Positions 2,860-62,010 of a DNA stretch of 64,000 bases are shown here, one piece after another. Position numbers and translations under genes: made by a program. Numbering within the stretch: the first letter of the stretch is position 1; each line of letters starts with the position of its first letter. This stretch comes from Thermoproteota archaeon (GTDB lineage Archaea; Thermoproteota; Methanomethylicia; Methanomethylicales; Methanomethylicaceae), in the NCBI GenBank assembly GCA_029887795.1, contig JARXPE010000001.1, positions 129,386 through 193,385 on the forward strand. Reading direction: 5' to 3'. Under the pieces are notes generated by a model. That model did no database searches and had not been told where the DNA came from. It worked only from the letters and a program-made list of their open reading frames with translations.

Positions 2860-4762
2860 CTAGAGTGTGTTGGGGCTTTTCCTTCGCCTTCTTTTCCTGA
2901 GGGGGCAACTTAGCAACGACGCTATGGGCGGGGATCTCTTTCAACTTGGGCACCTCCTGCCTCGGGGGCTCCCTCTTTTCTGGAGGCTTCAATTTTGTCT
3001 TCACCGTTTCCATAAGTTTGTGGAAGATTTCTTCTTGGCTGGTGCCTGTCAGGAGCGACAAATCTCTCGCGATCTCACGTGCGTAGATTTGGAAGATGCT
3101 CTGTCGGTGGCGTTCGTGCTCCTGCCTCTGCCTATGAGTCACGTAGGAATGTATCATCCTGCCCAGCGCTTGGAGCGCGAGCCTCAACTGCTCGTGGATC
3201 TCGTCATGGTAGGCGACTGCAAATTTTCCGGGGACTGTGTATGGTACTTTAGTTGAGATCAGTGAAATCACCAAAACCATCGGGGCGAGGGGGAGTGTTC
3301 CCTCCTCCTGCGGGAGCTTGTAGTTTCTCCAGTTTATCTCCTTCACAGTCTTGTACAAGAGGCAATCCTTGGAGTCGTAGATCAAAGGGCACTTGTTTCC
3401 AAGTCGTATAACCTTCGCCTTAAAGACGCCAGGCCTTACAGTCTCGCAGTCACTTGCAACGGAGGCGCCGCCGTAGGCGACTGCGACCTCCACTTGAAAT
3501 GGAATTCCCCTGTACGACCACGGCTCCCTTGAAGTCGCCTCGATAAACTCAGCGTCGGGGTAAAGCCTCCTGAGGGATTGCCTGAGAGCCTCCTCCCCTA
3601 TGGGGCTAAGAACGTCTAGGGGAGGTCGCATGATGTCGACCTCCTTGGCCGCCTTGAATAGAGCCTCCACGTTGATCTCCTTGGGTGGAACGTTTGGAGA
3701 GATCTTTGCTGCGGAAAGTAGCTGAAGGGCTTTTAGGTCCGAGATCCTGACGAAGTGTCTAACCAAAAACTGCTTCGCATCCCTACAGCACCTGTCGTTA
3801 GAGATCATCTCAAGGAGCGCCCCCGGCTCTATGGAGAGTATGTGGGGCTTTATTTCCTTGGGTTGGGGCGGCAGGGTTTTTGTTGCCCTCGGGTAGTTAA
3901 TGACCTTCTCCTCACCGTTTACAGTGGGCTTGAGTATGAACTTCAGCTCCGCGTGGGGGTTGGCAAGAGAGAGCTCCTTGATGAAGGACTCCACTTTTTT
4001 TGTAAATTCCCCCGCGACCATCAACTCAACTTTGGTCCCATGAATTCTGTCGAAGGGGACCTCTTCTGCAGAAATAACGATGGGCTTATTTTGCTCGGTG
4101 TCTATCTTGAGCACCACTCGGTAAGCCTTCTCGTCGGTCTCGGTTTTAGTGGTTATAATGGCGGGCTCCAGCGAGGTCAGCTGGGCATATATTATCGCAG
4201 CATGAACGCCGAGCCCCTGCTGACCCCTTGATTGCTTGAAGGAAAAGAACTTAGACCCATAAAGGACCTTGCCAAAGGCCTTTGCCACTTTGCTCCGCAC
4301 CACACCACAGCCGTTGTCCTCAACACAGATTTTGAAGATTGGGAACTTTCTTATTCCGCCGTCCTTTATCCTATTTGTGATGACCTCATATTCCTTCTCT
4401 GTGGCGGCAAGGGTTACCGTGATTTCAGGAAGGACACCCATAGCCTCGGCCGCGTCGAGTGAGTTGTCGACTAGTTCTTTGATAGTTTGGACCAGGGCAT
4501 GTTCTGGGTCGCCGAAGCCAAGCTGACCCAAATTCTGCCTGTAATATTGGGCGGGATTTACGGCTCTCATCTTCCTTGCTTCTGCTTCAGCGACTGTGGG
4601 AGGTTCTAATGTTGACTTATCTTTGCGCCATTCTTTCCTGGGGCGCCTAGTTTTTCTCAAAAGGGTCCTTCGGACTGTTTTCTCGGCACCTTCCTTGTTT
4701 GCCCCTATCTTGTCTGCACCGTCCTCTCCTTTCATCATCAGATAGACCCCACATGACACCAA
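2843..4762 (-). CDS. top6B: DNA topoisomerase VI subunit B (start may be ATG ~4738)
   Basis: GHKL motifs KELVDNSLDA, EDNGCG, YGSKF, SRGQQGLG, HGTKV; overlaps top6A. Confidence 0.95.
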   Translation of the reverse strand: MVSCGVYLMMKGEDGADKIGANKEGAEKTVRRTLLRKTRRPRKEWRKDKSTLEPPTVAEAEARKMRAVNPAQYYRQNLGQLGFGDPEHALVQTIKELVDNSLDAAEAMGVLPEITVTLAATEKEYEVITNRIKDGGIRKFPIFKICVEDNGCGVVRSKVAKAFGKVLYGSKFFSFKQSRGQQGLGVHAAIIYAQLTSLEPAIITTKTETDEKAYRVVLKIDTEQNKPIVISAEEVPFDRIHGTKVELMVAGEFTKKVESFIKELSLANPHAELKFILKPTVNGEEKVINYPRATKTLPPQPKEIKPHILSIEPGALLEMISNDRCCRDAKQFLVRHFVRISDLKALQLLSAAKISPNVPPKEINVEALFKAAKEVDIMRPPLDVLSPIGEEALRQSLRRLYPDAEFIEATSREPWSYRGIPFQVEVAVAYGGASVASDCETVRPGVFKAKVIRLGNKCPLIYDSKDCLLYKTVKEINWRNYKLPQEEGTLPLAPMVLVISLISTKVPYTVPGKFAVAYHDEIHEQLRLALQALGRMIHSYVTHRQRQEHERHRQSIFQIYAREIARDLSLLTGTSQEEIFHKLMETVKTKLKPPEKREPPRQEVPKLKEIPAHSVVAKLPPQEKKAKEKPQHTLDAFIR

Positions 4763-4907
4763 AGCAAATTAAGTGCGCCCGTCATCCTGTATGTATAAAA
4801 AGTATTTATCCCTTCTCGGCAACATGAGGGCACACCCCATATAAAGAATAATTACATTCCAAGAAGAGTTTTGTTAGCTTGGAAAAGGAAAAAATCAAGG
4901 TTTGAGG

Positions 4908-6467
4908 TCAAAAGCCAGGAACTTCCTCTAGGAGCATGCCCTCGATCATGAATGGGGGGTTTCTGGAGGCTACGCCTAGGGCCTCTTTGAGTTTTGACTC
5001 TCTCTCCGCATAGATTTCCACGACCGGGTCGCCTTTCTTAACCGCGTAACCCATTTTCGCGTAGAGTTTAACGCCTGATCCCTTGTCGAGAGGTGCCCCC
5101 GCTGCCTTAGCAATCGCATTGATTGCGGAGTTATTTATGATGCTCACGTAGCCATCTGTGGGAGCCGCGAGTATGTACCTCTTCTCGCCTAATGGAATCT
5201 CGTCTGGCTTGATGTTGGGGTTACCTCCTTGGTTCTCGATGATTTCGCGGAACTTCTGGTAGGCTTTACCACTCCTTAGGATCTCCTTGGCCATGTCTTG
5301 ACCCCCTCCCCTAGGAGCCAAACCAGTCATCTCAAAGAGTGTGCCAGCAAGTGCAGTTGATTTCTCGATCAAGCTATTCGGACCCCTTCCCATGAGGGTC
5401 TCGAGCGCCTCTTTTGCCTCCAGTGCAGGACCCACGGTGTGACCGACCGGCTGACCTCCGTATGTCAAGCCACACCTAACCCTGATGCCAAGGCGGCTCC
5501 CCAACTCAATGAACTCGTTGGCAAGCTTACGTGCCTCCTCAAAACTTTCCACTTTCGCACCTCTTCCGGTTGGGATGTCCAAGACCAATGTCGAGACGCC
5601 CACGGCCAGCTTCTTCGCCATTATAGATGCCAACATCTGAGGGCGAGGGTCTATGGAGAGCGGATGTTCCACTCTTATGAAGAGGTCATCGGCTGGTGCA
5701 AGGTTCAGGCTGCCACCCCATGCTATATACCCTCCAGTTTTCTGGAGAAGTCTCCTGAGCTCGCTAACTGAAAACTCCACAGGAGCGAGTACTTCCATGG
5801 TGTCAGCAGTACCTGACGGACTGGTTATCGCCCTGCTGCTCGTCTTGGGTATCTTAAGTCCTGCGGCTGCCACTATGGGAACTATGAGGAGCGTCACTTT
5901 GTTTCCCGGGACGCCACCTATAGAATGTTTGTCGACCACAGGTTCTCCAAAATCTATTGTATTTCCAGTCTCAACCATAGCACGGGTTAGGCTCTCTATC
6001 TCATCCATGTTCATGCCGACGTACTCCTCAGCCATGAGAAAAGCGGCGACCTCGAGCTGGCTCAGAGAGTGTGTCACAGTGTCCTTCACTATCTGGGTTA
6101 TCTCTCCCTTGGTGAGTGTTTGACCTCTCATCTTTTTACGGATGTACTCAACCGATGGCGGGGTAGGAGCAGGGGATATCTCCACCTCTTCCCCTTCTGA
6201 GACAGGAAAATCCTGCAGCAGGTCTCTATAGATTCCGACCTCTCCTGGGCAGACTAGCCCGCTGGATACTTCAATGCGGCAAACTATCCTGTCGGATATA
6301 TCAATCCTTGCAAGGACATTCGCACCGCCCTTGCTAAGGCGGACTCGATCATGAATTCGGAGCATCATGCCCTTTGCATCCTGTTCGTTCAATACCACGC
6401 CCTTTTCTCCGGTGGTGATGTCTATGATTTTTGCCTTGAGAGTCGGCATTGCTAGATCACTACTCAT
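4908..6467 (-). CDS. deoA: AMP (NMP) phosphorylase
   Basis: DKHSIGGVPGN, PKTSSRAITSPSGTAD, N-terminal extra domain, 519 aa. Confidence 0.95.
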   Translation of the reverse strand: MSSDLAMPTLKAKIIDITTGEKGVVLNEQDAKGMMLRIHDRVRLSKGGANVLARIDISDRIVCRIEVSSGLVCPGEVGIYRDLLQDFPVSEGEEVEISPAPTPPSVEYIRKKMRGQTLTKGEITQIVKDTVTHSLSQLEVAAFLMAEEYVGMNMDEIESLTRAMVETGNTIDFGEPVVDKHSIGGVPGNKVTLLIVPIVAAAGLKIPKTSSRAITSPSGTADTMEVLAPVEFSVSELRRLLQKTGGYIAWGGSLNLAPADDLFIRVEHPLSIDPRPQMLASIMAKKLAVGVSTLVLDIPTGRGAKVESFEEARKLANEFIELGSRLGIRVRCGLTYGGQPVGHTVGPALEAKEALETLMGRGPNSLIEKSTALAGTLFEMTGLAPRGGGQDMAKEILRSGKAYQKFREIIENQGGNPNIKPDEIPLGEKRYILAAPTDGYVSIINNSAINAIAKAAGAPLDKGSGVKLYAKMGYAVKKGDPVVEIYAERESKLKEALGVASRNPPFMIEGMLLEEVPGF

Positions 6468-6503
6468 TAAGTTCTAATACGCCATTAAAAACCCTGCGGA
6501 CGT

Positions 6504-7823
6504 TCAGTCTTCACCCAAAGCCTTTCCACCCCAGTGCTTGAGCGCAACCTCCAGCTCCTTGTGGTTTTTTGAGTATTCCTCCAATGGAACGCCAGCGACG
6601 CAGGCGTCTATGGCTTGGCGCATGGCTGCTGCTCCTGCCCTAGTGCCGAGTGGATGACCATGGATGCCGCCACCCGCGTTTATGACGCAGTCTTTGCCCA
6701 AGGCTTCGAAATTCGCTGGTACAAGACCGGGGTGTACTCCCCCGGAGGCCACAGGAAAGACGCTCTTCAGTCCGAACCAATCGTCCCGAAGCGAATCGAT
6801 GATCTTTTTGAGCTCGTGCTTCCGCTCTTCTGTCGTACCCATCTTTCCCGCCCCTGTGCCCGTGTGGAGCTGGTCGCCACCCAGCATTCTAGCGATCTTA
6901 GCTATGACAAGCATGGAGATCCCGTGCCTTGGGTTTCTAGTGAAGGTAGCATGCATGGCTCTGTGCATGTGTATGGGGACTCCAAACGTGTAGCTGGAGA
7001 GGAACCACTCTACCGTTGGCAGACCTAGTATTATTATATCCAGCATCAGGGTATTTGCCCCGTTGTCGATGGCGGTCTCTGCCAGCTTTACCATTTTGTC
7101 AGGTGCTCCGGTGACGTTCACTGCAAATAATACTTTCCTGCCGGTCTCAGATTTTGCCTTGTCCAAGGCGTCCATGACCTTCGAGACGCGCTCCTCTAAC
7201 GGGCAGAAAGCCTGATTCACGAGCGTCTCGTCATCTTTTATGAAGTCGACACCCCCTAGGGCAGCCTCGTATGCAACCTTTGCAGTCTGCTCAGGGTTGA
7301 GCCCGACCTTTGGCTTAACGATAGTTCCGAGGTGAGGTCGAGGTGCCGAATCTGTGCCTACAAGACGCCTGACACCCTCTATACCAAACTCTGGACCGCG
7401 GTAGTGCCGGACCACCGACTTTGGAAATTCTATATCCACCAGTCGGACGTTCTTAAGGGCTGAAAGACCAAATAAGTTCCCTGCGACCATGCTCAGTATG
7501 TTTGCAATGCCGCTTGTCTCCAGATCGAACAAATCAAGAGGGAATGCGATATATACAAAGCCAGACTCGCCTTCGCCCTCCATTTTGTAAAGTTTTGCGG
7601 GAAGTTTAGTCCTGACCCATTCGTTAATAGTTGTGATCTCGGTCCAAGTCCCAATGGACTCCTCCGTGGCGATGGCAATGCCAGCGGATTTCAAGCCAAG
7701 CGGGCTCTCAACGTAGTATTTGGCTGAGATGTACTTATCTGGGTCAATCTCTTCGGGTCTGGCAGTAAATATCTCATCCATGTATAGTGGCGTGGTGGAT
7801 TCATCCTTCATACCCATACTCAT
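6504..7823 (-). CDS. rbcL: RuBisCO large subunit, form III-type
   Basis: EESIGTW, AGNLFG, KPKVGL, DFIKDDE, HRAMH, HTGT-GKM, SGG, GGGIHGHP: full catalytic set. Confidence 0.93.
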   Translation of the reverse strand: MSMGMKDESTTPLYMDEIFTARPEEIDPDKYISAKYYVESPLGLKSAGIAIATEESIGTWTEITTINEWVRTKLPAKLYKMEGEGESGFVYIAFPLDLFDLETSGIANILSMVAGNLFGLSALKNVRLVDIEFPKSVVRHYRGPEFGIEGVRRLVGTDSAPRPHLGTIVKPKVGLNPEQTAKVAYEAALGGVDFIKDDETLVNQAFCPLEERVSKVMDALDKAKSETGRKVLFAVNVTGAPDKMVKLAETAIDNGANTLMLDIIILGLPTVEWFLSSYTFGVPIHMHRAMHATFTRNPRHGISMLVIAKIARMLGGDQLHTGTGAGKMGTTEERKHELKKIIDSLRDDWFGLKSVFPVASGGVHPGLVPANFEALGKDCVINAGGGIHGHPLGTRAGAAAMRQAIDACVAGVPLEEYSKNHKELEVALKHWGGKALGED

Positions 7824-50306: not shown

Positions 50307-51251
50307 ATGGAATACGCCATCGAGATCTCGGGGCTTACTAAGAAGTTCGGGAATTTTGTGGCGGTGGACAACCTTGACCTGCGGGTGAAGGTAGGGGAGA
50401 TCTTCGGGTTTCTTGGACCAAACGGTGCAGGCAAGACTACCACCATTAGGATGATGTGCGGACTAATGAGGCAGACTAAGGGGAGCATAAAGATCTATGG
50501 ATACAGCATCCCTGAAGAGAGGAACGAGCTCATCAAAATTACAGGGTATATGGCTCAGCGCTTCAGCCTTTATGAGGACCTGAGCGTTTACGAGAACATG
50601 GAGTTCTTTGGTAAACTCTACGGGCTCAACGGAAAAAACCTGGAAAACAGGATACTCGAACTCCTCGAGTTCCTTGATCTCAAGGATGTCAGGAGGAGGT
50701 TAGCTGGGAGGCTCAGCGGAGGGATGAAACAGCGGCTGGCACTTGGTGTCGCGTTGATCCATAGACCAAAGCTTCTGGTGCTAGATGAGCCCACCGCGGG
50801 TGTTGATCCTCCAATAAGGAGGGCATTCTGGGAGTACCTCAGGGGTTTGAATAAGGAGGGGACCACAATCTTGGTGACCACGCATTACATGGACGAAGCT
50901 GAAAACTGCGACAGGATTGGTCTTATGAACAGAGGCAGGCTCATAGCAGAGGGAACGCCGAAGGAGCTCAAGAGGAGGGTCTTCGGAGGAGACATTGTGG
51001 AGGTTGTTTTGCACGGGTACGTTCAGGAGGGCACCCTAGAGGGAGTCGCAAATCTAAAAGAACTGGCATACAGGGACGGAGACACGGTCCTAAGAGTGGT
51101 TTTGAAGGATGCTTCTAGGGAACTCCCAGCACTTCTAAGGAGGATCGATGGAATGGGGTTGAAGATCATATCCGCAGAGCCGATTAACGTTACCCTCGAG
51201 GAAGTATTCATAGAGCTGGTAACGGGGAGGATTGAAAAAGTAGCACTCTGA
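50307..51251 (+). CDS. ABC-2 exporter ATP-binding subunit
   Basis: GPNGAGKTT, LSGGMKQR, LDEPT, TTHYMDEA. Confidence 0.95.
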   Translation: MEYAIEISGLTKKFGNFVAVDNLDLRVKVGEIFGFLGPNGAGKTTTIRMMCGLMRQTKGSIKIYGYSIPEERNELIKITGYMAQRFSLYEDLSVYENMEFFGKLYGLNGKNLENRILELLEFLDLKDVRRRLAGRLSGGMKQRLALGVALIHRPKLLVLDEPTAGVDPPIRRAFWEYLRGLNKEGTTILVTTHYMDEAENCDRIGLMNRGRLIAEGTPKELKRRVFGGDIVEVVLHGYVQEGTLEGVANLKELAYRDGDTVLRVVLKDASRELPALLRRIDGMGLKIISAEPINVTLEEVFIELVTGRIEKVAL

Positions 51252-51252
51252 G

Positions 51253-52359
51253 GTGGTTCCTTTGAGGCTGATGGCCGTCGTAATCAAGGAGTTAATTCAG
51301 CTGAAAAGGGATCCTAGGTCTCTTGTTATGATAGCGATGATTCCGTTGATAGTCATGTTGCTGTTCGGGGTCGGATATGGCGGGGGCATGGGAAAGATCA
51401 GTGTAGCCGTTGTTAACTTGGATAAGGAAAGCTTGAGCTGGACTGTACTCGACTCCATTATGAAAACACCAAGCGTTTATGTGAAGGCCTATGCCAACAG
51501 TATCGAAGAAGGAAGGGAGCTCGTAAAGAACGGCATCGTCTCTGCTGCGGTCGTGATCCCGGAGGGGTTTACTACAGAGCTGATGAGGGGGGCATCGACT
51601 CAGGTCTTGGTGATAGTGGACGAAAGCATCACAACGATCTCCAGCACCATAAGGAACGCAATGCTGGCGGTGACCTACAAATTCCAGCAGGAACTCGTCA
51701 GGAGTGTTCAGGGGTCCTCGGTGGAGCTCATCTACAGCTCTGTCTACGGTCCAAAGGTCACGAACCTTGAGGCCTTCACCCCGCTCGTCATCGGCATAGT
51801 GCTCCAACTCGTTCCGACAAGTCTGATATCAATAGCCATCTGCAAAGAAAAGGAAAGGGGCACATTTGAGCAGTTGATAATGTCTCCCATCAGTAGGTTT
51901 GACATAATATTTGGAAAGTTGCTGGCTTTCTTCATTGCGACAATAGCGGACATGCTAATAACGCTGATGGTTGCCGTGTGGATATTCGACGTCTCAATGA
52001 GGGGACCTTTAATAGATGCTATGATTATTTCTACACTTTTCTTGCTTGGATCTTTGGGACTTGGTATGTTAATATCAGTCCTCTCCAAGAACCAACTTCA
52101 GGCTAACCAAGCAGCCATATTCATATTCATACCCGCTCTGCTTTTCAGTGGGGCTTTGATGCCTATTGAAATGCTATCGCCTAGCGCCCGGATACTGGCA
52201 AATCTCACTCCCATGTACTACTTTGTTTCGGCATTCAGAGATATCATGATAAAGGGGTTCGGGCTGTGGCAGATAACGTGGCAGATGTTTGCCCTCTTGG
52301 TTTACATGGCACTGATGATGGTAAGCGCCCCGCTAGTACTAAGGTTGAGGGTTGATTAA
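51253..52359 (+). CDS. ABC-2 exporter permease
   Basis: KE..QL.RD, EKERGTFEQL..SP, multi-TM C-terminus. Confidence 0.92.
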   Translation: MVPLRLMAVVIKELIQLKRDPRSLVMIAMIPLIVMLLFGVGYGGGMGKISVAVVNLDKESLSWTVLDSIMKTPSVYVKAYANSIEEGRELVKNGIVSAAVVIPEGFTTELMRGASTQVLVIVDESITTISSTIRNAMLAVTYKFQQELVRSVQGSSVELIYSSVYGPKVTNLEAFTPLVIGIVLQLVPTSLISIAICKEKERGTFEQLIMSPISRFDIIFGKLLAFFIATIADMLITLMVAVWIFDVSMRGPLIDAMIISTLFLLGSLGLGMLISVLSKNQLQANQAAIFIFIPALLFSGALMPIEMLSPSARILANLTPMYYFVSAFRDIMIKGFGLWQITWQMFALLVYMALMMVSAPLVLRLRVD

Positions 52360-52361
52360 TT

Positions 52362-54593
52362 ATGATTGTTTGGAGGGAATTTGGCATGTTTCGTAAAGCT
52401 GGAATGACTATTTTAATTATGTTAATAATTCTCAGCTCAATCTGTCCAATCATCAATTGTGAGGAGACAAACTTCAGGGTGGAGGATGTGAATTGGAGGG
52501 CACTGAACATAGGCGTGGGCAATAGTACCTGCGTTGTCTTACTGAGGTATTACGGAAGTGACTCATGCTCCTATGTGAGGGGGAGTCTTGATGTCTCTAA
52601 GCTGAGTGAGACCTACACGGAGGTCTCTGACGAATATTCTGGGACGGTCGAGTATGGAGGTGCCGTTTACCTAGAGTTTGTTTTTGACGTTTCTTCCTCC
52701 TCTAAAGCAGGCTGGTACAAGGTCCCACTTAAAGTAAATTACATGACCGACGGGAGGGTCTTTTGGGAGTATTTTGATGTGGTGCTGACAGTCAATGGAG
52801 ATCCTGACATTTCGATTGGCGCAAATGGTGAGGTGATTTGGAGGGGACAACTTAACGAACTCCCAATTGTGATAAGGAATCTTGGGGATGGGCTGGCTAG
52901 GAGAGTCACTGTCACTGTGCAAAGCCAAGATGTCTATCTGACAATAGTTGGACCCAATGAGTTCAGGAGCGATTTTCTGATGCCCAATGGAGAATGGGTA
53001 ATAGTTGTGAAGACCTTCGCACAGCTAAGCATCAGGGACGGGACTAGCCTTGCCGTCAATGTCAGGTATGAGGACCAAAATGGAGTTGGTAATGCAAAGA
53101 CAACAACTATTGGCTTAAAGGTGGAAGATCCGGAGAAGCCCAGCACTGTGGTTAGTACAAATACCACAAAGATACGACCGGGTGTTACAAACGGTGTGCT
53201 CTTTTTCATAGTGAATAATGGTGGTAAGAAAGCAATCGACGTGACGGTCAGGCTCACCCCAGCCACGAACCAACTGACCTTGGTTGGCAATAACACCTTC
53301 TCAGTCCCAGAGTTTGGGATAGGAGAGGCGCTAAACATTCCAGTATCCTTGTACTTGGAACCGCAGACCTATGGAAGCCTGCCAGTCTATGTGATGATTG
53401 ACTACAAAGACGAGAGGAATAGCACCTACCAAGACTCGCTATCAATTGGATTCCTGAGCGAGGAGGAGCCCGAGCCCAAGGTGGAGGTGACAGCAAAGGA
53501 CATTCAGATTCAACCAAACGCCATAAACTCCATAACTATAATACTCGAAAATAGGGGGGATAGAGCTGCAAAAGATCTTAGGATCAACCTCTTCTCCCAG
53601 TCTCCGGAGGTTGCTGTTGTAGTGGGGAGCGGGGTCGCACACCGAGACCTCTTGGAGCCAAAGGAGGTCTGGGAGGTTGAGAAGGAGGTCTTCGTGCAGC
53701 CGAACGTATACGGAGCGGTGCCCTTGTACGTTCAGGTCCAGTATAAGGACGATTTGCAGAACAGGTACTCTTACACATCGACTATAGGTTTTGAGGTTAG
53801 AGGCACACCTTCCGTGGCGATCTCTTCGGTTATATATAACCCGTCCCCGGTTTTCCCAGGGAACAGGGTCGTTCGTGCAAATTGTGTTATAGTAAACCAT
53901 GGCAATTATACGGCGCAAGACGTGAGTATTATTTTGGGGGAAATAGGTGGAGTCGTAAAGCCGTCTTACCCTGGGTCAGACCGAGTAAAGATACCATTCC
54001 TGACGGTCGGAGGAAGTGTGAGTGCTCAATTCCTGCTAGATATCGATGAGAACGCAAAGCCTGGATACTATGAGATACCTGTAGAAATTTCGACAAGGAC
54101 CGAAAATATCTCAACAGTAATCCCACTCACAGTTTCGGAGAAGGCCAAGATCCTTGTTGACAAGATATATTTCGACAGGGAAGTCATTCCTGGAGCCAGG
54201 AATGTGAAGCTGTTCGTTGAGACACTCAACGTAGGAAACGTGACGGCGGAGGAGGTCAGAGTCTCGGTCATATCCGGGTACATCACGGGATCTACAACAT
54301 CCCTATTGGGAAACATGGCGAGCGGGAGCAGGAAAGTGATCGTCATGGAGGTTGACGTGGATAGCAAGGTCAGTCCGGGAGATTTGCCAGTTGATGTAGA
54401 GGTCTCTTGGAGCCAAGATGGGAGGAGTATGTCAGAGACCTCGACCATGAATCTGACAATCGGCGAGCCAGGCAGGATTGAGGTCTGGGTGTTATTAGGA
54501 GGTCTAGCGGTGGCAGTGGCATTAGTCATAATATTTAGAAAGAAGTTAGTAGAGTTCGGAAAGTCATTTTTCTACAAATTCAGAGGTCAATGA
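52362..54593 (+). CDS. COG1361-type surface/S-layer protein with repeated Ig-like domains and C-terminal TM anchor
   Basis: Signal-like N-terminus, repeated N.G...A..V and Y.D motifs, terminal TM plus basic tail. Confidence 0.75.
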   Translation: MIVWREFGMFRKAGMTILIMLIILSSICPIINCEETNFRVEDVNWRALNIGVGNSTCVVLLRYYGSDSCSYVRGSLDVSKLSETYTEVSDEYSGTVEYGGAVYLEFVFDVSSSSKAGWYKVPLKVNYMTDGRVFWEYFDVVLTVNGDPDISIGANGEVIWRGQLNELPIVIRNLGDGLARRVTVTVQSQDVYLTIVGPNEFRSDFLMPNGEWVIVVKTFAQLSIRDGTSLAVNVRYEDQNGVGNAKTTTIGLKVEDPEKPSTVVSTNTTKIRPGVTNGVLFFIVNNGGKKAIDVTVRLTPATNQLTLVGNNTFSVPEFGIGEALNIPVSLYLEPQTYGSLPVYVMIDYKDERNSTYQDSLSIGFLSEEEPEPKVEVTAKDIQIQPNAINSITIILENRGDRAAKDLRINLFSQSPEVAVVVGSGVAHRDLLEPKEVWEVEKEVFVQPNVYGAVPLYVQVQYKDDLQNRYSYTSTIGFEVRGTPSVAISSVIYNPSPVFPGNRVVRANCVIVNHGNYTAQDVSIILGEIGGVVKPSYPGSDRVKIPFLTVGGSVSAQFLLDIDENAKPGYYEIPVEISTRTENISTVIPLTVSEKAKILVDKIYFDREVIPGARNVKLFVETLNVGNVTAEEVRVSVISGYITGSTTSLLGNMASGSRKVIVMEVDVDSKVSPGDLPVDVEVSWSQDGRSMSETSTMNLTIGEPGRIEVWVLLGGLAVAVALVIIFRKKLVEFGKSFFYKFRGQ

Positions 54594-54705
54594 GAAAATT
54601 CGAATCTCCACTTATCGGAATAAGAACATGAATATCAAATGCAGACTCGATTCGATAAGGGAAGAAAAAGATGTAGAAGAAACAAGGTTAAGAAAAAAGA
54701 AAAAA

Positions 54706-55461
54706 TTACTGGATGTGGAATGTTATTGAGACGCTAGCAGATACGCTCACCGCACCCGGCAGAATTGTTGTAGAGGATGCCACTGCTAGATCGTAGCTAC
54801 GGTATATCGGAACTGGAGACGAGTAGGATTCGGAGACGCTTTGTACGCCTACAACCTTCACGCCCAAGGTTTTCGCGATTGTCTCTGCCTTTGCCTGGGC
54901 GTCCTTAACGGCCGCTTCTAGGGCACTCGTCCTCAGAGCTGCGAGCTTTGCGTCCGAGACCGCAAAGTACACTCCATTGACTTGATTTAGACCACTCTCA
55001 ACACATGCGTCGATTATTTTACCAGCCATCTTTCCAAGATCTGTGCCGCTGTAGGTGACCTGGAGGGTGTGAACGACCCTGTATCCAATTAGCACCTGTT
55101 CGTTGTTTATGTACCTGTACTCGGGGCTTATGGTGTAACTCAGCGTCTGTATCGAAGACTCAGGGATGCCCAAGCCTTTCAATGCGCTCAGGGCGCGATT
55201 TATGTTGTTGGCTGCGGACGAAGTGGCTTTTTGAACGTCAGGATCTAGAACGCTAGTTCCCAGGATCACCTTTACGGTGTCGGGTTGCTCGTATAGCACG
55301 GCATTGCCAACCACTGAGAGAGTGCCGAGGCTTTTACCTTCATCCAGATCTGCAGCCTGGACCTGTTGTGGAGAATAAAGGACGCTCCCCAAAACTAATA
55401 ATGTCAAGGCAACGCCAAAGAATGCAAGATATTTCAATTTCAAGTTTAATCTCATATCCAT
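54706..55461 (-). CDS. SIMPL (DUF541) domain secreted protein
   Basis: Signal/TM, V.G.....PD, I.T..Y.I.PEY, AL..AV.DA..KA..IA. Confidence 0.88.
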   Translation of the reverse strand: MDMRLNLKLKYLAFFGVALTLLVLGSVLYSPQQVQAADLDEGKSLGTLSVVGNAVLYEQPDTVKVILGTSVLDPDVQKATSSAANNINRALSALKGLGIPESSIQTLSYTISPEYRYINNEQVLIGYRVVHTLQVTYSGTDLGKMAGKIIDACVESGLNQVNGVYFAVSDAKLAALRTSALEAAVKDAQAKAETIAKTLGVKVVGVQSVSESYSSPVPIYRSYDLAVASSTTILPGAVSVSASVSITFHIQ

Positions 55462-55511
55462 ATTGATCACTAAGGCAATATTAAAAATCAAGGCTTATAA
55501 CCATAGCAGAT

Positions 55512-55539: not shown

Positions 55540-55689
55540 AAATTGATGTCTTGTGCTTTTATTACATCTTTGATGGTGGTCCAATACGTCATATAATTCT
55601 GATTATAGCTTCAGCTGGTTTTAAAGTGAAGTTACCTTTTTGTGGCGCATCATGCAGGAGGGCAGTACATTATCGGGCATTCCAATAGT

Positions 55690-56322
55690 CTAAAGGTGAA
55701 TTCCAGCACGGTTCAGTGCGAGCCTCAATGTGTACCATAGTGGAAATGATATGATGGAGAGCAGAGTCAAAGAAACTATGAATGAGAGAGTAAGATCTAA
55801 CAACGAATTGGACTGGAAAACAAGCAGGGATGGCAGAACAGAGAGGATTAATGAGGAAACAAAAATTGAGAGTGAAAGTTGACGCAAACTTGGGCAGAGT
55901 AGTGCCGAAAGTGTTCCAAATAGTAAAGCGAAAAGCCATAGTGAGATAGGGATAAGGAAGCTGTTCGCAAAGAAATACAGCATGGTAATAGTCAAGGCTG
56001 ATGGCAAGTAAAAGAGAAATCGCCTTCCGAATTTGTTGCGCTCTTTATCTGCCTCAATGATCGTTTTGGGGATCTCTTGGTTAAGCCAAACCTCAGCCTT
56101 CGGGGTGATCTCGTAGAAGTAGCGCTTGTCATCCCTTCTTCTTGAGATGAGGCCTAGCCTCAGTAAAATTGAGAGGTGAGATTCTATAGTGCTCCTCGAT
56201 CTGTTGACGCTCTCTGCGATCTCGTCCCCGGTCATTGGTCTCTTGGAGAGGGATTCAAGTATGGCATACCTAGTCCTCTCACTCAGAGCGTCGAGGATTT
56301 CCCTCAGTTCTTCCCCTTCCAT
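55690..56322 (-). CDS. ArsR-type wHTH regulator fused to a C-terminal multi-TM domain
   Basis: ALSERTRYAILESL...SRSTIESHLSIL..LGLI, then about four hydrophobic helices. Confidence 0.82.
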   Translation of the reverse strand: MEGEELREILDALSERTRYAILESLSKRPMTGDEIAESVNRSRSTIESHLSILLRLGLISRRRDDKRYFYEITPKAEVWLNQEIPKTIIEADKERNKFGRRFLFYLPSALTITMLYFFANSFLIPISLWLFALLFGTLSALLCPSLRQLSLSIFVSSLILSVLPSLLVFQSNSLLDLTLSFIVSLTLLSIISFPLWYTLRLALNRAGIHL

Positions 56323-56365
56323 GTTATATCTTTTGGAGAATTGGCATTTAAGACCATTTTTATGT

Positions 56366-56389
56366 TTCGACCTTTCTAGAAAGATCGAA
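56366..56389. promoter_or_regulatory. 24-bp near-perfect palindrome between divergent promoters
   Basis: TTCGAcCTTTCT|AGAAAGaTCGAA (one mismatch); TTTTATAA at 56410-56417. Confidence 0.55.
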
Positions 56390-56447
56390 TCGATCTCCGT
56401 CTAAAGAGAGTTTATAATCGGTAAGGGATGAACTCTTTCAGAGGCCT

Positions 56448-57008
56448 ATGCGCCTGAAAAAAGTTCTGATTATACTCACAGTAATACTCTTCCCATGGAT
56501 ACTGCTGCCGTTGGCTTTATACTATGCCTGGAGGCGGGGGATAATCGGGCGTTTCGCGAAAAAGTTAGTTTTAGTCAAAAGGCCGAATTTTGGAGGTAAG
56601 CTTGTCGAAGAGATCTTAACATTAAAGTACTATAAGCCCACTAATGGAGGTTGCATATCGGTAATACCAAGGATGTTAGGAGTGCAGTACGTTTATGGAA
56701 TTGAGGTTCGAGATAACCCGGAGAGGTTGACGAGAAATATTGAGGATGTGATAAGGACAACCTTAGATAACGTTCAATGGCACGGAAAGACTCTGATCTC
56801 ATTAACAGTCAGAGATCGTATTGAGAAAGTGCGAGTTTATTCGGTTTCAAGAATCCTTCCGGGAATTGAGGCGGACGTGGACAAAGAGGCTTTTGAGGTC
56901 TCTTTGAGAATCGCCGACGCATTGAGACCAAAATCGCCAACAGTGAAGGTCACCCTATGCAGGGGCAATGCCGTCATGGAAGGATTGCCCTTGGGGGAGG
57001 TTGTATGA
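56448..57008 (+). CDS. Hypothetical membrane-anchored protein
   Basis: N-terminal TM followed by basic residues; first gene of an overlapped operon. Confidence 0.7.
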   Translation: MRLKKVLIILTVILFPWILLPLALYYAWRRGIIGRFAKKLVLVKRPNFGGKLVEEILTLKYYKPTNGGCISVIPRMLGVQYVYGIEVRDNPERLTRNIEDVIRTTLDNVQWHGKTLISLTVRDRIEKVRVYSVSRILPGIEADVDKEAFEVSLRIADALRPKSPTVKVTLCRGNAVMEGLPLGEVV

Positions 57009-58357
57009 TGGGACAGAGTCTAAGAACTCTAGGTCTCCCCAAGAGTTTTGGGGCAAGGATGGCAGTGCGTTTTAGTTTGGATGGGGTCGAGAGGGCGGAG
57101 TTTTCGAAGACACTTGTGATTGGAGATGAGCTGACGAGGTTCAAGATGATTATGGAGCTCGTTGTAAGAGGTTTCGAGGGGGGCGATACCCCATTTATCA
57201 TTGATATGAAGGGCAGATATTCTGGGCTAATAGATTATGTGCCTTCTATCAGAGTATACAAAGCCGGTAGGCACATAACATTTAACCCGCTTAAAGAGAC
57301 TTTCCAAGGGTACTCAAAGGAATTCGCCGTGATCTTTGGTGATTTGTATGGGTTAAGTCGCGACGAGCGCACTTTCCTTGCAAAGGCGCTTGAGGGGGTG
57401 TACAGGGACGGAGATCTAAATCCAACATTGGAAGGGGTCTTTGAAAAGCTCCTTCAGATGGAGGCAGAAGCCCAGCCAAAAGATTGTTACAAGATTGAGT
57501 GTCTCAAAAATGTACTCTCGGAGCTTGAGATGGGACCGTCAGGTTCAATTTTTAAGGGGAAGGAAAAGGGGGTGACTGCGCCCATGATACTTGATTTAAG
57601 CACTCTTATGCCGAAGGAGAGAGCCCTGATGATGGCGTCCTCTCTGGCGAGGGTTAAGGCGTGTAGAGCCTCATTTCTAGTGGTTGACGGATTGGATTGG
57701 TCTATGTTATCTGACTTGGGAGGGTTTATGGCAGTTTTTAGGGAGAGGATCGGGGATTTGTGTCGCGAAGGTATGTCCGCTTACATCGGGGCAGACTGTC
57801 TGCAGCATGCCCCATTATGGGGGACTGCGTACATCTTCTGTGGGCCCATTTGGCATGAGGAGGTTCGATGGATCAGAGGCTTGTTGGATGGGGAGGGTTT
57901 TGAGAATTTCAGGTATTTGGAGGAGGGTACAGGCCTCGTCTTTACGTGGAAGAGAGCGCCATTCTACCTGAGGTACAGAAATTCAGAGTTTAGGTTAGTC
58001 GATGACGAGGAAATCGATGAGCACATGAGGGCTCTGGGGGAGGAGGTCGAATTTGCGGATTCGGTGGGCGAGAAGGGTACGAGGGTTCTAGAGAGGCTCT
58101 TTAGGGATAGGGCTTCACTCTTCTACGCTAAGGAGTTCTTGAGGCTGGTCTGCGAGGGCAGAGTTCCTGTGGAAGCGGTGAGTTCGCAGAAAAATGCAAT
58201 GCTTAGAAATGTAGTCAGGATCTTGAAGCGATATTTTATGATCGTAGAGTACATGGACGGTTCAGGAAATAAGTGGTATAGACTCACCAGAGTGGGGGAG
58301 AAAGCACTAAGCGAGATGGAAGGTGGTAGGAATGAAGGTAAAACATGTAACAGATAG
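57005..58357 (+). CDS. VirB4/HerA/TraD-like P-loop-fold protein with degenerate Walker motifs and C-terminal winged helix
   Basis: IIDMKGRY, FNPL, helical insert with PTL, ILDLS, VVDG; Walker A position reads VIGDELTR; C-terminal WYRLTRVG. Confidence 0.65.
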   Translation: MMGQSLRTLGLPKSFGARMAVRFSLDGVERAEFSKTLVIGDELTRFKMIMELVVRGFEGGDTPFIIDMKGRYSGLIDYVPSIRVYKAGRHITFNPLKETFQGYSKEFAVIFGDLYGLSRDERTFLAKALEGVYRDGDLNPTLEGVFEKLLQMEAEAQPKDCYKIECLKNVLSELEMGPSGSIFKGKEKGVTAPMILDLSTLMPKERALMMASSLARVKACRASFLVVDGLDWSMLSDLGGFMAVFRERIGDLCREGMSAYIGADCLQHAPLWGTAYIFCGPIWHEEVRWIRGLLDGEGFENFRYLEEGTGLVFTWKRAPFYLRYRNSEFRLVDDEEIDEHMRALGEEVEFADSVGEKGTRVLERLFRDRASLFYAKEFLRLVCEGRVPVEAVSSQKNAMLRNVVRILKRYFMIVEYMDGSGNKWYRLTRVGEKALSEMEGGRNEGKTCNR

Positions 58358-58637
58358 GGCGATATTCTGGAGCGTAGGGAGAGGCGAGGGGGAGGAGATA
58401 ATTGGGGTGGAGGTATGTTTAGGCGGAGAGGACAAAGTCTTCAGAAGGATAGTTGCTAGGGGAAAATATGGGAAAGAGAGGACAGTTTTTTCTGAGAGGT
58501 ACTCCGTCGACGAGTTTCAGGGGGTTATCCGATCAGAGTTAGCGCTGATCTCCTCCATCCAAGGTGTGAAAGGTGATGCTTTGACCTTGGTATTAGAGGC
58601 GATAGAACTGCTCAGGAGGGTTTGTGAGAAGTTATGA
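58332..58637 (+). CDS. Hypothetical protein
   Basis: Overlaps both neighbours; RBS-like GGTGGT/AGGA upstream. Confidence 0.6.
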   Translation: MKVKHVTDRAIFWSVGRGEGEEIIGVEVCLGGEDKVFRRIVARGKYGKERTVFSERYSVDEFQGVIRSELALISSIQGVKGDALTLVLEAIELLRRVCEKL

Positions 58638-59620
58638 ATAGTGACAAAGGCGATTTCATGGGCGGTGTTGGTGAGGAGGTAGACTTAGAGGACTTGGATG
58701 GGATAGGGTCTTCAACCGCAGAGAAGCTGAGGAGGGCAGGAATTAATTCTGTGAAGGAGCTCGCCGCCATATCGGTCAGGGAACTTTTAGAGAGGAGTGA
58801 GCTGGGAGAAGGGAAGGCCGAAGAGGCGACGAAGAATGCCAGAGATTTGGTACTTCCCAAGGTCGTAAGCGCGAGGGAATTTTTGGAGAGGAGAAAGAAC
58901 ATGCAAAGGTTGACGACCGGTTCGAAGAACATAGATAGGCTGCTTGAGGGAGGGCTAGAGCCTGGCATAACCGAGCTCATCGGTGCGTATGGGACTGGTA
59001 AGACACAACTTTGTCTCCAGCTCTGCGTCACAGCGCAACTCACGGCTAACAGTGGGGGACTAAATGGTTCAGCATTCTACATTGATACTGAGGACACTTT
59101 CAAGCCTGAACGTCTTCTGCAGATAGTAAAGAGGTTTGGTGTTGAGGACGACCGGCTGCTGGACGGAGTTTACTGTTTTAGGGCTATAAACTCCGACCAC
59201 CAGTTTGAGGGACTCAGGGAGGCGGTCCGTTATATTAAAGAAAAGTCTGTGAAACTGCTGATAGTGGACTCGCTCACCTCCCACTTCAGGAGCGAATACC
59301 CGGGCAGGGAGAACCTAGTTTTAAGGCAGCAGAGGCTAAACAGCTTTATGCATGCGCTTCAGAGACTAGTCTCTATTTATGATGTCATAGTGGTAGTTAC
59401 TAATCAAGTGTTGGATGTTCCAGAGATCATACCTGGGGCGAGACCTGCCAGACCTGTCGGAGGTAACATAGTTGCGCACGGCAGTACATTCAGACTGTGG
59501 CTTGAAAGGGCGAAGGGCATGACGAGAGTGACCTGCATAGACTCGCCAAAGCACGCGAGGGGGACGACCTACGTTGTTCTAACGGAGGGAGGGGTCGAGG
59601 ACGCTGAAGGAGAGGAGTGA
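58634..59620 (+). CDS. radA: RadA/Rad51-family recombinase, divergent full-length copy
   Basis: N-terminal HhH (LEDLDGIG..TAEKL), GAYGTGKTQ, IDTE.TF.PER, VDSLTSHFRSEYPGRENL, TNQV, GGNIVAH. Confidence 0.88.
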   Translation: MNSDKGDFMGGVGEEVDLEDLDGIGSSTAEKLRRAGINSVKELAAISVRELLERSELGEGKAEEATKNARDLVLPKVVSAREFLERRKNMQRLTTGSKNIDRLLEGGLEPGITELIGAYGTGKTQLCLQLCVTAQLTANSGGLNGSAFYIDTEDTFKPERLLQIVKRFGVEDDRLLDGVYCFRAINSDHQFEGLREAVRYIKEKSVKLLIVDSLTSHFRSEYPGRENLVLRQQRLNSFMHALQRLVSIYDVIVVVTNQVLDVPEIIPGARPARPVGGNIVAHGSTFRLWLERAKGMTRVTCIDSPKHARGTTYVVLTEGGVEDAEGEE

Positions 59621-59622
59621 GG

Positions 59623-62010
59623 TTATGGCGATTCTAGCCGCCACTCGTCCTCTTTCCGTGTCCTGAGGACCTCTTCAAGAATCACTCTTCGCTCAACCCC
59701 TGCTACAATCTTCCGGGTCCACACTACAACATCCGGGTTAACGCTTAGGCTGTCTATACCCTGTCTGACCAAGAACTCTGTGAGCTCCGGGTATACGCTG
59801 GGACCCTGCCCGCATATGCTGACGGTCACCCCGTTCTTGTGGGCGACTTTTATCAGGTGAGATATCGCCCTGAGGACCGCAGGATCCCTTTCGTCGAAGT
59901 ACCGCGAGTCCTGTGCTGGCAATATCGGGGAGTCTCTGTCCACGCCCAAGATGAGTTGTGTAAGGTCATTGCTCCCGACGCTGAAACCGTCGCAGAGCTT
60001 GGAGAACTCGTCTGCCATGAATATTATTGAAGGTATCTCTGCCATCAGCCAGACCTTGAAGTCCCTGCTCCTCTCAAGTCCCTCCTCCTTCATGATGGAG
60101 AGGCACCTCTCTACCTCCCAAGTGGTCCTGACGAAGGGCAACATGACATAAACATTCTTCAGCCCCCACTCGTCCCTGACACGTTTAATCGCCTTGCACT
60201 CGAGCCTGAAGCCAGGTTCGTACATGGGCGAGATGTATCTACTTACGCCGCGCCAGCCTATCATCGGGTTGTGCTCTTCGGGTTCGTATCTGTCGCCACC
60301 CTTGAGTTGCCGGTACTCATTAGTCTTGAAGTCGCTGAACCTCACGACGACAGGTCTTGGATAAATGTTTCGGGCTACCCATGCGATTCCGCTGGCTAGC
60401 TTATCTATGAAACGCTCCTCCTCGTGCTTCTCGATGAGGTAGAGCGGGTGCTCGCCTATAATGTCGGCAATTATGAACTCGATACGCATTAGACCTATGC
60501 CGTCGAACGGGAGATCCTTGTACTTGTCTATCATCGCAGGTTCTCCCAAGTTCATGTATATCTTTGTCCCTGTTGGTGGGTAAATCCCTGTCATATTGAT
60601 TGCGACGGGAGCAGCCTCTTTCTTCTCCTCCGCCGCCAGTAGATCCCCGTCATAAACTATGCCGTGGGTGGCGTCGACTGTTATAACTTGTCCCGTCTTT
60701 ATCACGGATGTAGCGTTCACGGTGCCGACTATGCAAGGAATGCCCAGCTCGCGGCTTACGATTGCGGCGTGGCAAGTTATGCCGCCGCTGTTGGTAACGA
60801 TTGCCCTTGCCTTCCTCATGGCAGGAGCCCAGTCAGGGGAAGTCATGTGGGTGACCAAGATCTCGCCAGTTTGGAACTGCCCGATATCCTTAACATCCAC
60901 AATAACCCTGGCTTTTCCCGAAACTATGCCGGGTGCAGCAGGGAGACCACGAAGGAGGCGCTTCTTCTCCCCTTTAATAGACGGGCCCTCCTCCTTAGCC
61001 TTCTCTTTCTGAGACCAGACCGTCTCTGGTCTAGCTTGAACGATGTAGAGACGGTTGTCATCCTCATCAAGTGCCCACTCTATGTCCATGGGTATGCCGT
61101 AGTGTTTCTCGATTTCAATTGCATACCTTGCTAGCATGATCACCTGATCCCTAGTTATGCAGGGCGACTCCCGCATGTTCTCAGGAACTGGGATCTCCTT
61201 GATGAATCCGCCCCCTCCCTCGGCTGGCGATCTCACAGACATCCGTGATTTTTGTGAGATCGATTCTTTCAGTATGGTAAGGTTCTTTTTGTCGACTGTG
61301 AATTGATCAGGTCTAACTCTGCCTTGCACGATGGTCTCTCCGACGCCGAATGTCCCTTCAATGACTATGATGTCCTTGTTTCCAGTGGCAGGATCCAAGG
61401 TGAATATGACGCCAGCGGCCTTGCTATTCACCATCTTCTGTACGCCCACACTCAGGTAGACCCTACTGTCTTCAAACCCCTTGGCCTTACGGTATGCTAT
61501 GGCCCTAGGGGTGTATAGGGAAGAGAAGCATTTCTTTACATATTTCAGCAGGGCAGACTCCCCCTCTACGAAGAGGAAGGTGTCTTGCTGACCTGCAAAG
61601 CTTGCGTTTGGAAGGTCTTCTGCAGTGGCACTGCTCCTGACGGCAACAGCTGGGTTCTTCTTCCCGAGTTTCTCCCCGAGCACCTTGTAAGCGCCAATTA
61701 TGTCCGATTTCAGCACTTCGGGGATCTCCGCGGACTCGATCATCTCCCTAATTTTGGATGACGTGGACTCCAATGATGCGCTGTCAAGAACGTCGACCTT
61801 GGAAAGGAGGTCGAAGATCTTTTGAGCCAGTTTGTTCTCGTCGATGTGCAACTTGTAAGCTTCGGCGGTTATGGCAAAGCCGGGGGGCACAGGTATACCA
61901 ATGGAGATCAGCTCCCCAAGATTCGCGTTCTTGCCACCCACAATACCAACATCAGTTTTCCTGAGAGACTCAAACGGAATGACGTATTTTGATGATGTCA
62001 TTTGCAACAC
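59623..62010 (-). CDS. ppsA: Phosphoenolpyruvate synthase
   Basis: GGKNANLGE, RSSATAEDL, SFAGQQ, QARPETV, TCHAAIVSRE, GSNDLTQL, CGQ. Confidence 0.96.
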   Translation of the reverse strand: MLQMTSSKYVIPFESLRKTDVGIVGGKNANLGELISIGIPVPPGFAITAEAYKLHIDENKLAQKIFDLLSKVDVLDSASLESTSSKIREMIESAEIPEVLKSDIIGAYKVLGEKLGKKNPAVAVRSSATAEDLPNASFAGQQDTFLFVEGESALLKYVKKCFSSLYTPRAIAYRKAKGFEDSRVYLSVGVQKMVNSKAAGVIFTLDPATGNKDIIVIEGTFGVGETIVQGRVRPDQFTVDKKNLTILKESISQKSRMSVRSPAEGGGGFIKEIPVPENMRESPCITRDQVIMLARYAIEIEKHYGIPMDIEWALDEDDNRLYIVQARPETVWSQKEKAKEEGPSIKGEKKRLLRGLPAAPGIVSGKARVIVDVKDIGQFQTGEILVTHMTSPDWAPAMRKARAIVTNSGGITCHAAIVSRELGIPCIVGTVNATSVIKTGQVITVDATHGIVYDGDLLAAEEKKEAAPVAINMTGIYPPTGTKIYMNLGEPAMIDKYKDLPFDGIGLMRIEFIIADIIGEHPLYLIEKHEEERFIDKLASGIAWVARNIYPRPVVVRFSDFKTNEYRQLKGGDRYEPEEHNPMIGWRGVSRYISPMYEPGFRLECKAIKRVRDEWGLKNVYVMLPFVRTTWEVERCLSIMKEEGLERSRDFKVWLMAEIPSIIFMADEFSKLCDGFSVGSNDLTQLILGVDRDSPILPAQDSRYFDERDPAVLRAISHLIKVAHKNGVTVSICGQGPSVYPELTEFLVRQGIDSLSVNPDVVVWTRKIVAGVERRVILEEVLRTRKEDEWRLESP

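Follow-up and report, generated by a model that had tools for sequence, protein, structure and literature searches.

The 64,000-nucleotide stretch analysed here (the window; contig JARXPE010000001.1 of assembly GCA_029887795.1, positions 129,386 to 193,385) originates from a Thermoproteota archaeon of the family Methanomethylicaceae and contains a four-gene operon, in which a second RadA gene is joined to a predicted pseudo-ATPase of the HerA/VirB4 fold. The genome carrying the operon (G000) comprises 1.25 Mb and is 92% complete. The operon consists of four open reading frames (ORFs) on the plus strand at 56448-59620, each overlapping the next, with ATGA-type overlaps at genes 1/2 and genes 3/4 and an overlap of 26 nt at genes 2/3 (Table 1). 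These coordinates and overlaps agree with an earlier sequence-only reading of the window, which had described four overlapping co-oriented genes. The order of genes 2-3-4 was kept in 15 of 16 relative loci, the remaining locus stopping at a contig edge, and the conserved linkage to a dedicated RadA that the same reading had proposed was thereby borne out. The ratio of nonsynonymous to synonymous substitution rates (dN/dS; six pairs per gene) was 0.16-0.24 for gene 1, 0.13-0.20 for gene 2, 0.12-0.17 for gene 3, and 0.045-0.055 for gene 4; pseudogene-like decay, which that reading had considered, was not seen in any of the four genes (0.05-0.24). Taken as a whole, the locus is a genuine operon that is subject to purifying selection and is conserved in Methanomethylicia and some other Thermoproteota. 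Pfam and NCBIfam scans of genes 1-3 gave no match.

Table 1. Genes and regulatory features of the operon locus (window positions)
Feature	Position	Strand	Description
Gene 1	56448..57008	+	186 aa; N-terminal hydrophobic hairpin and ~130-aa alpha/beta domain; likely homolog of the CedD-like transmembrane and N-terminal domain
Gene 2	57008..58357 (57005/57008 start; 449 aa from second ATG)	+	HerA/VirB4-fold pseudo-ATPase, nearest CedD; predicted C-terminal winged helix
Gene 3	58332..58637	+	101 aa; five-stranded beta-meander and two helices; weak PC4/PUR-like topology
Gene 4	58634..59620	+	328 aa; second full-length RadA; Walker A/B intact; FxxA replaced by VxxA
ArsR-type helix-turn-helix regulator	55690..56322	-	Hydrophobic C-terminus; Pfam HTH_5, E 1.4e-9
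Palindrome, 24 bp	56366..56389	.	Likely operator; 22/24 positions self-complementary; between divergent promoters
TATA-like box TTTATAAT	56411..56418	+	Read from the sequence, upstream of gene 1; putative function

The translation of gene 2 contains the landmarks IIDMKGRY, FNPL, and ILDLS, with VIGDELTR at the place of Walker A and VVDG at the place of Walker B, and all the motifs quoted in the earlier reading were located. The AlphaFold model (predicted local distance difference test score, pLDDT, 84) gave VirB4 4ag6 as its best Foldseek match (E 3e-8, TM-scores 0.53/0.62), followed by DndH, HerA, and TrwB, and a 27-sequence profile of gene 2 matched HerA among the solved structures (best E 7.7e-5). 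A RecA-like core with a helical insertion, as in the FtsK-HerA superfamily, was present, confirming the P-loop fold that had been assumed. The loss of Walker A is general, since GK[ST] was missing from the P-loop in all 36 orthologs. The acidic pair of Walker B was kept by pattern in 7/36 orthologs; the claim that it is absent therefore stands for this family, in which the motif has decayed, but not for some distant orthologs, in which DE persists. The last ~80 residues of the model are arranged as helix-helix-helix-strand-strand-helix, and this secondary structure, together with a match of one ortholog to the winged-helix family HTH_45 (E 3.6e-4; 28 proteins scanned), supports the prediction of a C-terminal winged helix in the earlier reading. 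The identity of gene 2 orthologs between families was only 15-22%. Because its dN/dS is 0.13-0.20, gene 2 is, as judged from its sequence, a maintained pseudo-enzyme. In two loci (L125 and L134) gene 2 encodes only ~303 aa, and genes 3 and 4 and the SWIM gene described below are intact there.

By profile scores, the nearest active relative of gene 2 is CedD, which is essential for DNA import in Sulfolobales (PMC11823120, PMC11868833). With the broad gene 2 profile, the best other match in the genome was G000:C3:6323-8140 (E 8e-30), whose 606-aa product has transmembrane (TM) segments, an N-terminal domain, and intact Walker motifs. The homologs of this gene include STK_03200, named CedD under the designation ST0320 in Table S1 of PMC11823120; ST0320 found the same gene when used as a query (E 9e-45). 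The gene 2 profile placed the CedD-like protein at the top in four of five tested genomes of other families, and in G150, a genome with 10 DUF87 matches, it scored the CedD-like protein at E 2e-21 versus 8e-9 for the runner-up. The CedD-like gene on G000:C3 faces thermosome/adenylate-kinase genes, as do the CedD-like genes of L175, L176, and L178. In a quick ATPase tree, from which 8 rows without a Walker A pattern were omitted (three canonical HerA-like rows among them), 22 pseudo-ATPases formed one clade with a support of 99 in the Shimodaira-Hasegawa-like approximate likelihood ratio test (SH-aLRT). The sequence-only reading had pointed to CedB; as the closest relative, CedB was rejected on scores (E 1e-9 to 3e-7 versus 4e-24 to 4e-17 for the CedD-like proteins), the label CedB being assigned here from adjacent two-TM genes in L181/L216 and from the tree clade. 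Another protein of the genome, a HerA-like protein of 1002 aa encoded at G000:C12:22429-25434, has a coiled-coil region and ends in a long stretch rich in cysteines.

The soluble part of gene 1 was collinear with the N-terminal domain of the active CedD-like proteins at the family level (hhalign 77%, E 2e-5, 110 columns), and 30 shuffles reached at most 14.4 bits and the reversed profile 9.2 bits. Against the N-terminal profile of Sulfolobales-type CedD the match was 38% (E 3e-4, 93 columns), and against three CedB-like N-termini it was 0.3%. In G343, the active CedD-like gene is naturally split, and the gene 1 hidden Markov model (HMM) matched its N-terminal gene (E 1e-7). A PDB sequence search with the gene 1 profile gave nothing significant, and the best matches of an atlas search, a Thorarchaeota-rich cluster (0.82) and DUF8128 (0.77), did not reach the trust level. 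Gene 1 probably corresponds to the N-terminal half of a CedD-like protein that has become a separate gene; the membrane anchor described in the earlier reading is retained as a predicted hydrophobic hairpin, though not as a generic anchor. Because gene 1 resembles the CedD-like membrane anchor and N-terminal domain, genes 1 and 2 are most plausibly the two halves of a CedD-like copy that was inactivated and gained a winged helix. In this reading they would resemble CedD (Saci_0667, SiRe_1715, ST0320; PMC11823120, PMC11868833) in having TM segments, an N-terminal domain, and a HerA/VirB4-type ATPase domain, here spread over the two genes, and CedD-like proteins are the best-scoring active relatives of gene 2. 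The operon version differs in being split in two, in the loss of Walker A, in the added winged helix, and in its predicted co-transcription with a RadA paralog.

The model of gene 3 (pLDDT 82) showed a beta-meander with two helices. Structural comparison related it to Pur-alpha (Z 5.6-5.8) and MRP1/2 (Z 6.0), with root-mean-square deviations of 2.3-4.2 over 57-68 residues; all matches remained at Z <8 and were tied among PUR/PC4-like proteins, single-stranded RNA phage coats, and unrelated meanders. Foldseek gave no match at E 0.001 and the atlas search gave none. The residues W13, R38, K45, and Y57 are conserved in the family. As a guess from the model, gene 3 may encode a single-stranded-DNA-binding or adaptor protein.

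Gene 4 shares 48% identity with the canonical RadA of the genome (G000:C1:60982), which is a separate gene. Like archaeal RadA, it is full length, with a helix-hairpin-helix N-terminal domain, Walker A/B, the catalytic Glu, the L1/L2 loops, and the L1 arginines. It scored above the cut-off of PRK04301 (357 versus 259 bits) but below that of TIGR02236 (328 versus 361 bits; canonical RadA, 458 bits), and it further differs by the loss of FxxA. The Phe of FxxA drives the polymerisation of RadA subunits into filaments. It was present in only 1/36 operon RadAs and absent from 35/36, including gene 4 with VxxA, whereas Walker A was intact in 36/36; FxxA was present in the non-operon RadAs inspected. 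Several genomes of other families (L249-L266) have two FxxA-bearing RadA genes beyond the operon copy, and one set of these forms a separate, well-supported clade.

The ArsR-type gene occupies the same divergent position in many relative loci, and in G009 it was deleted together with the operon. It encodes a probable regulator of the operon, likely membrane-bound as judged from its sequence. A site matching the palindrome was found 49-66 bp before gene 1 in all 13 family loci examined, with 8-22 of 24 positions palindromic, and when the upstream regions are aligned, an AT-rich counterpart of the TATA-like box occupies the equivalent position. The palindrome itself was the only site in the genome above 17 bits, and no such site occurred in three shuffles; it is likely the operator for the divergent ArsR protein. 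The second-best score in the genome was 15.2 bits, at chance level, ~670 bp upstream of a RadB-like gene on G000:C27. That gene (G000:C27:2074-4155, L004) is followed by a small ORF and then by a family B polymerase-like ORF. A search for the ArsR-type regulator in five operon-lacking genomes, made without a positive control, found none. RNA data were uninformative: the contigs of set X3 spanned the flanking genes and some of gene 4, leaving 55604-58615 uncovered, set X4 had no reads on the stretch, and set X1 is probably DNA.

Among 47 loci, which were picked for carrying the operon genes, genes 2 and 4 were present in 47, gene 3 in 46, and gene 1, by HMM, in 42, and the gene order was kept in loci from several classes. 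Gene 3 had a match in 43 of 401 genomes of the phylum, mostly in Methanomethylicia with a few families of other classes, and the named homologs of gene 2 belong to Ca. Methanomethylicaceae/Methanomethyliales. In other families of the class, a SWIM-finger gene follows gene 4 (SWIM gene in 21/22 genomes), with named records including Ca. Culexarchaeum and Ca. Culexmicrobium. The SWIM proteins carry CxC..CxH in 17/17 cases and the terminal Ala (CxHxxA) in 9/17. The SWIM gene is followed in turn by a RecA-fold gene, which is RadB-like with an intact Walker A in G025 (TIGR02237 E 1.5e-13) and eroded elsewhere; the RecA-fold reading of this gene 6 rests on the G025 member, as a first hhalign alignment of gene 6 with RadA was not significant. 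The two genes are fused in G151 (L105:7205-7999). In the operon's own family, the SWIM gene was found in 0/22 genomes and not in G000, and the RadB-like partner was found neither in the window nor in G000, although one genus (L131) keeps a remnant of a RadB-like gene. By comparison of these loci, the operon in G000 is a six-gene operon reduced to four genes. Elsewhere, several copies of the SWIM family (4 to 9 matches) occur in each of G077, G208, G263, and G233 (families f18 and f32), some of them with stops, suggesting mobile or duplicated copies. In L110 and L111, genes similar to type IV secretion system (T4SS) pilins, DUF87, ParA-like, and TFB-zinc-ribbon genes surround a SWIM gene and a RadA paralog that lacks FxxA, and these loci resemble Ted loci.

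By analogy, the SWIM and RadB-like pair recalls SWS1-SWSAP1 of the eukaryotic Shu complex (SWS1-SWSAP1; Shu2-Shu1-Psy3-Csm2), whose SWIM protein has the motif CxC..CxHxxA (PMC6316741). The six-gene form resembles it in placing a SWIM finger beside a divergent RecA-fold paralog and a recombinase. For the binding of the SWIM protein to a Rad51/RadA paralog, the six-gene form offers adjacency and one fusion, both at the level of genes. It differs in that Shu is not known to have a membrane or pseudo-translocase component, and that the SWIM and RadB-like genes are not in the window and were not found in G000. PDB sequence searches with the SWIM and gene 6 profiles gave nothing significant and no match to the solved Shu subunits.

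Upstream of the CedD-like gene on G000:C3 are genes for a T2SSE ATPase and two membrane proteins as well as a pilin-like ORF, and more pilin-like ORFs lie beyond; the labels Tad, TadB/C, and pilin are our own reading, the ATPase alone having a Pfam match. In addition to the CedD-like and T2SSE ATPases and the two membrane proteins, the whole block (G000:C3:6323-13914, L152) contains five pilin-like ORFs and a zinc-ribbon protein judged TFB-like by eye. In the locus numbering of Sulfolobus, cedD and the damage regulator TFB3 are two numbers apart (Table S1 of PMC11823120). The block differs from the Ced system in that the active copy adjoins Tad-type pilus genes and that, with two TedA-like queries, no CedA/TedA-like channel was found in G000. 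DprA-family matches were weak, with one in an operon-lacking genome and none in an operon-bearing one, and their distribution is unlike that of the operon. Bacterial natural competence uses a type IV pilus, ComEC, ComFA, DprA, and RecA. The logic proposed here would be the same, with a pilus, an ATPase on the membrane side, and a loader dedicated to passing incoming DNA to the recombinase; the differences are that the parts are not homologous, that ComEC had no match in the five genomes searched, and that the weak DprA-family matches do not track the operon.

Of 32 genomes of the family, 22 had both gene 2 and the CedD-like gene, 8 had neither, 2 had the CedD-like gene only (G020, in 230 contigs, and G051, 73% complete), and none had the operon only. 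The 8 genomes lacking both loci are 86-98% complete with sizes of 0.9-1.6 Mb; they have no pilus ATPase and a single RadA with FxxA. In a quick tree of canonical RadA, these genomes were placed at four positions, three of them beside genomes keeping both loci, and by this tree the double absence is the outcome of four separate losses in the family. Adenylate kinase directly precedes an LSm gene in 4/4 double-lacking genomes in which it was found; therefore, the whole CedD/pilus block was deleted there. In G009, the flank of the CedD/pilus site was not found, and ppsA adjoins the SIMPL gene with the regulator and the operon missing between them; in the other four lacking genomes examined for the operon site, no SIMPL gene was found. 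The two loci are unlinked, lying 0.7-0.8 Mb apart in two single-contig genomes. Outside the family, G038 (93% complete) had no match for gene 2, gene 3, SWIM, the CedD-like gene, or the pilus ATPase. Because the operon was lost together with this distant block of pilus and DNA-pump genes, it likely hands imported DNA to recombination, and the part of the sequence-only reading that proposed a membrane-tethered DNA uptake module is supported by the co-loss as far as the tie to uptake is concerned.

On the basis of the folds, motif losses, selection, synteny, and co-loss obtained here, we consider it somewhat the better bet that the operon is a recipient-side module loading pilus/CedD-imported DNA onto recombination. 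Tad-type pili and the intact CedD-like ATPase would bring DNA into the cell, as suggested by homology and co-loss. Genes 1 and 2, for which a split origin is proposed because of the profile matches, would rebuild an ATPase-dead CedD-like subunit at the membrane, perhaps within or beside the active ring and in contact with the pump. The winged helix of gene 2 together with gene 3 may either bind the DNA strand as it enters or, by contact, bring in gene 4. Gene 4 would bind ATP and DNA and, since its polymerisation Phe is lost, may act as a mediator that nucleates or caps canonical RadA filaments instead of replacing RadA. In this way, a dead, membrane-anchored CedD copy would keep a dedicated RadA paralog at the place of DNA entry, and recombination would be initiated there. 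In most other families, the SWIM finger and the RadB-like protein would be added as a Shu-like mediator pair, and the divergent ArsR protein would likely control the operon via the palindrome.

Several results weigh against this assignment. Regarding the kinship with CedD, another paralog scored above the CedD-like one in the search of genome G101, the ATPase tree gave an unresolved split among the pseudo-ATPases, CedD-like proteins, and other HerA-like proteins with no placement inside CedD, and one of four unrelated profiles (RadA), when aligned with the CedD-like N-terminal profile, scored 28.6 bits over 34 columns. Regarding uptake, no DNA channel was found, as ComEC was absent in 5/5 genomes searched and two TedA-like queries gave no match better than E 0.097 in G000, and the palindrome was not present at the CedD/pilus block. 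CedD-like genes also occur without the operon: families f26 and f15 had a CedD-like gene in 7/7 and 10/10 genomes and gene 3 in 0/17 and 0/14, respectively. Outside the family, a CedD-like match (E 1e-20) was found in 13 of 30 genomes of the class compared with 24 of 30 for gene 2. Finally, the co-loss could come from a shared habitat shift, and four losses are a small number.

In one alternative, the operon encodes a membrane-tethered Shu-like mediator for ordinary chromosomal recombination repair, unrelated to uptake, the co-loss reflecting a shared habitat change such as lower temperature. The SWIM finger (CxC..CxH 17/17) and the RadB-like gene (TIGR02237 E 1.5e-13, G025) suit this explanation; they come after RadA in most of the other families and form a fusion in G151. 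The existence of CedD-like genes without the operon suits it as well. However, the SWIM gene was not found in 22/22 family genomes while genes 1-4 remain; therefore, the constant partners of the operon RadA are the CedD-derived genes. Moreover, no family genome has the operon without a CedD-like gene, and we regard the repair explanation as unlikely, though it deserves attention. The dead pump and the poorly polymerising RadA could instead limit how far foreign DNA is taken up or recombined, either poisoning the active ring or capping RadA filaments, as the loss of Walker A (36/36) and of the Phe (35/36) suits dominant-negative subunits equally and the co-loss is also compatible. Gene 4, however, retains Walker A (36/36), the catalytic Glu, and the L1 arginines at a dN/dS of ~0.05, which is beyond the needs of a simple cap, and such a gatekeeping function appears improbable.

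A further explanation reverses the direction of transfer, with the operon serving as a relaxase-free coupling complex on the donor side that readies chromosomal DNA for export to neighbouring cells. CedD is called VirD4/coupling-protein-like in PMC11823120, gene 2 matches TrwB structures, and the related SWIM and RadA pairs of L110 and L111 lie beside T4SS-pilin-like and DUF87 genes. In both PMC11823120 and PMC11868833, however, deletion of CedD affects import, not export, and a recombinase would be more useful in the recipient; a donor-side function has accordingly little to recommend it. Lastly, the genes could be what is left of a duplicated CedD gene in decay, with a spare RadA beside them by chance, in keeping with the 15-22% identity of gene 2 orthologs across families and with a truncated copy on G000:C37. 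The dN/dS of 0.05-0.24 for the four genes, the gene order kept across several classes, and the conserved operator all oppose decay, which we consider very improbable indeed.

The truncated copy (~3600-7050 of G000:C37; L003, L129) spans 3.2 kb with 77% nucleotide identity to window 58127-61360; it adjoins a 209-bp segment that matches part of the ABC-transporter gene (window 50480-50688), and its ppsA is frameshifted. It is either a contig of a related strain, with the regulator, gene 1, and most of gene 2 deleted, or a chimeric assembly. The neighbours of the operon in the window (50307-55491) are ordinary and comprise an ABC transporter ATPase and permease, a 743-aa surface protein with CARDB/NEW3 repeats, and the SIMPL (DUF541) gene.

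No description of the operon was found in the full-text literature searched, which leaves subscription journals largely outside and includes available parts of PMC11868833, PMC11823120, PMC9905601, PMC4858521, and PMC6316741. RadA and SWIM do not occur in the main text of PMC11868833 or PMC9905601, nor does RadA in the accessible text of PMC11823120. In the sections of PMC11823120 and PMC11868833 at hand, the account of the Ced system stops at 'homologous recombination' and names no loader. With considerable doubt, the operon may belong to an undescribed form of natural transformation in Thermoproteota that works without ComEC and DprA: DNA would be imported by CedD and a type IV pilus, and a dead twin of CedD bound to the membrane would load a special RadA onto it. 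The six-gene form with the SWIM finger and RadB-like protein would then preserve the archaeal precursor from which the Shu mediator of eukaryotes arose, its first use having been on incoming DNA.

For the hand-over of imported DNA to the recombinase in archaea, the operon supplies four candidate proteins and a partner locus, all parts of the operon being small enough for biochemistry. Gene 2 would represent a pseudo-enzyme derived from a DNA pump, and gene 4 a RadA that may act as a mediator, not as a filament. The SWIM/RadB-like pair of the relatives bears on the origin of the Shu complex, and the distribution of the operon and CedD would predict which lineages can exchange DNA.

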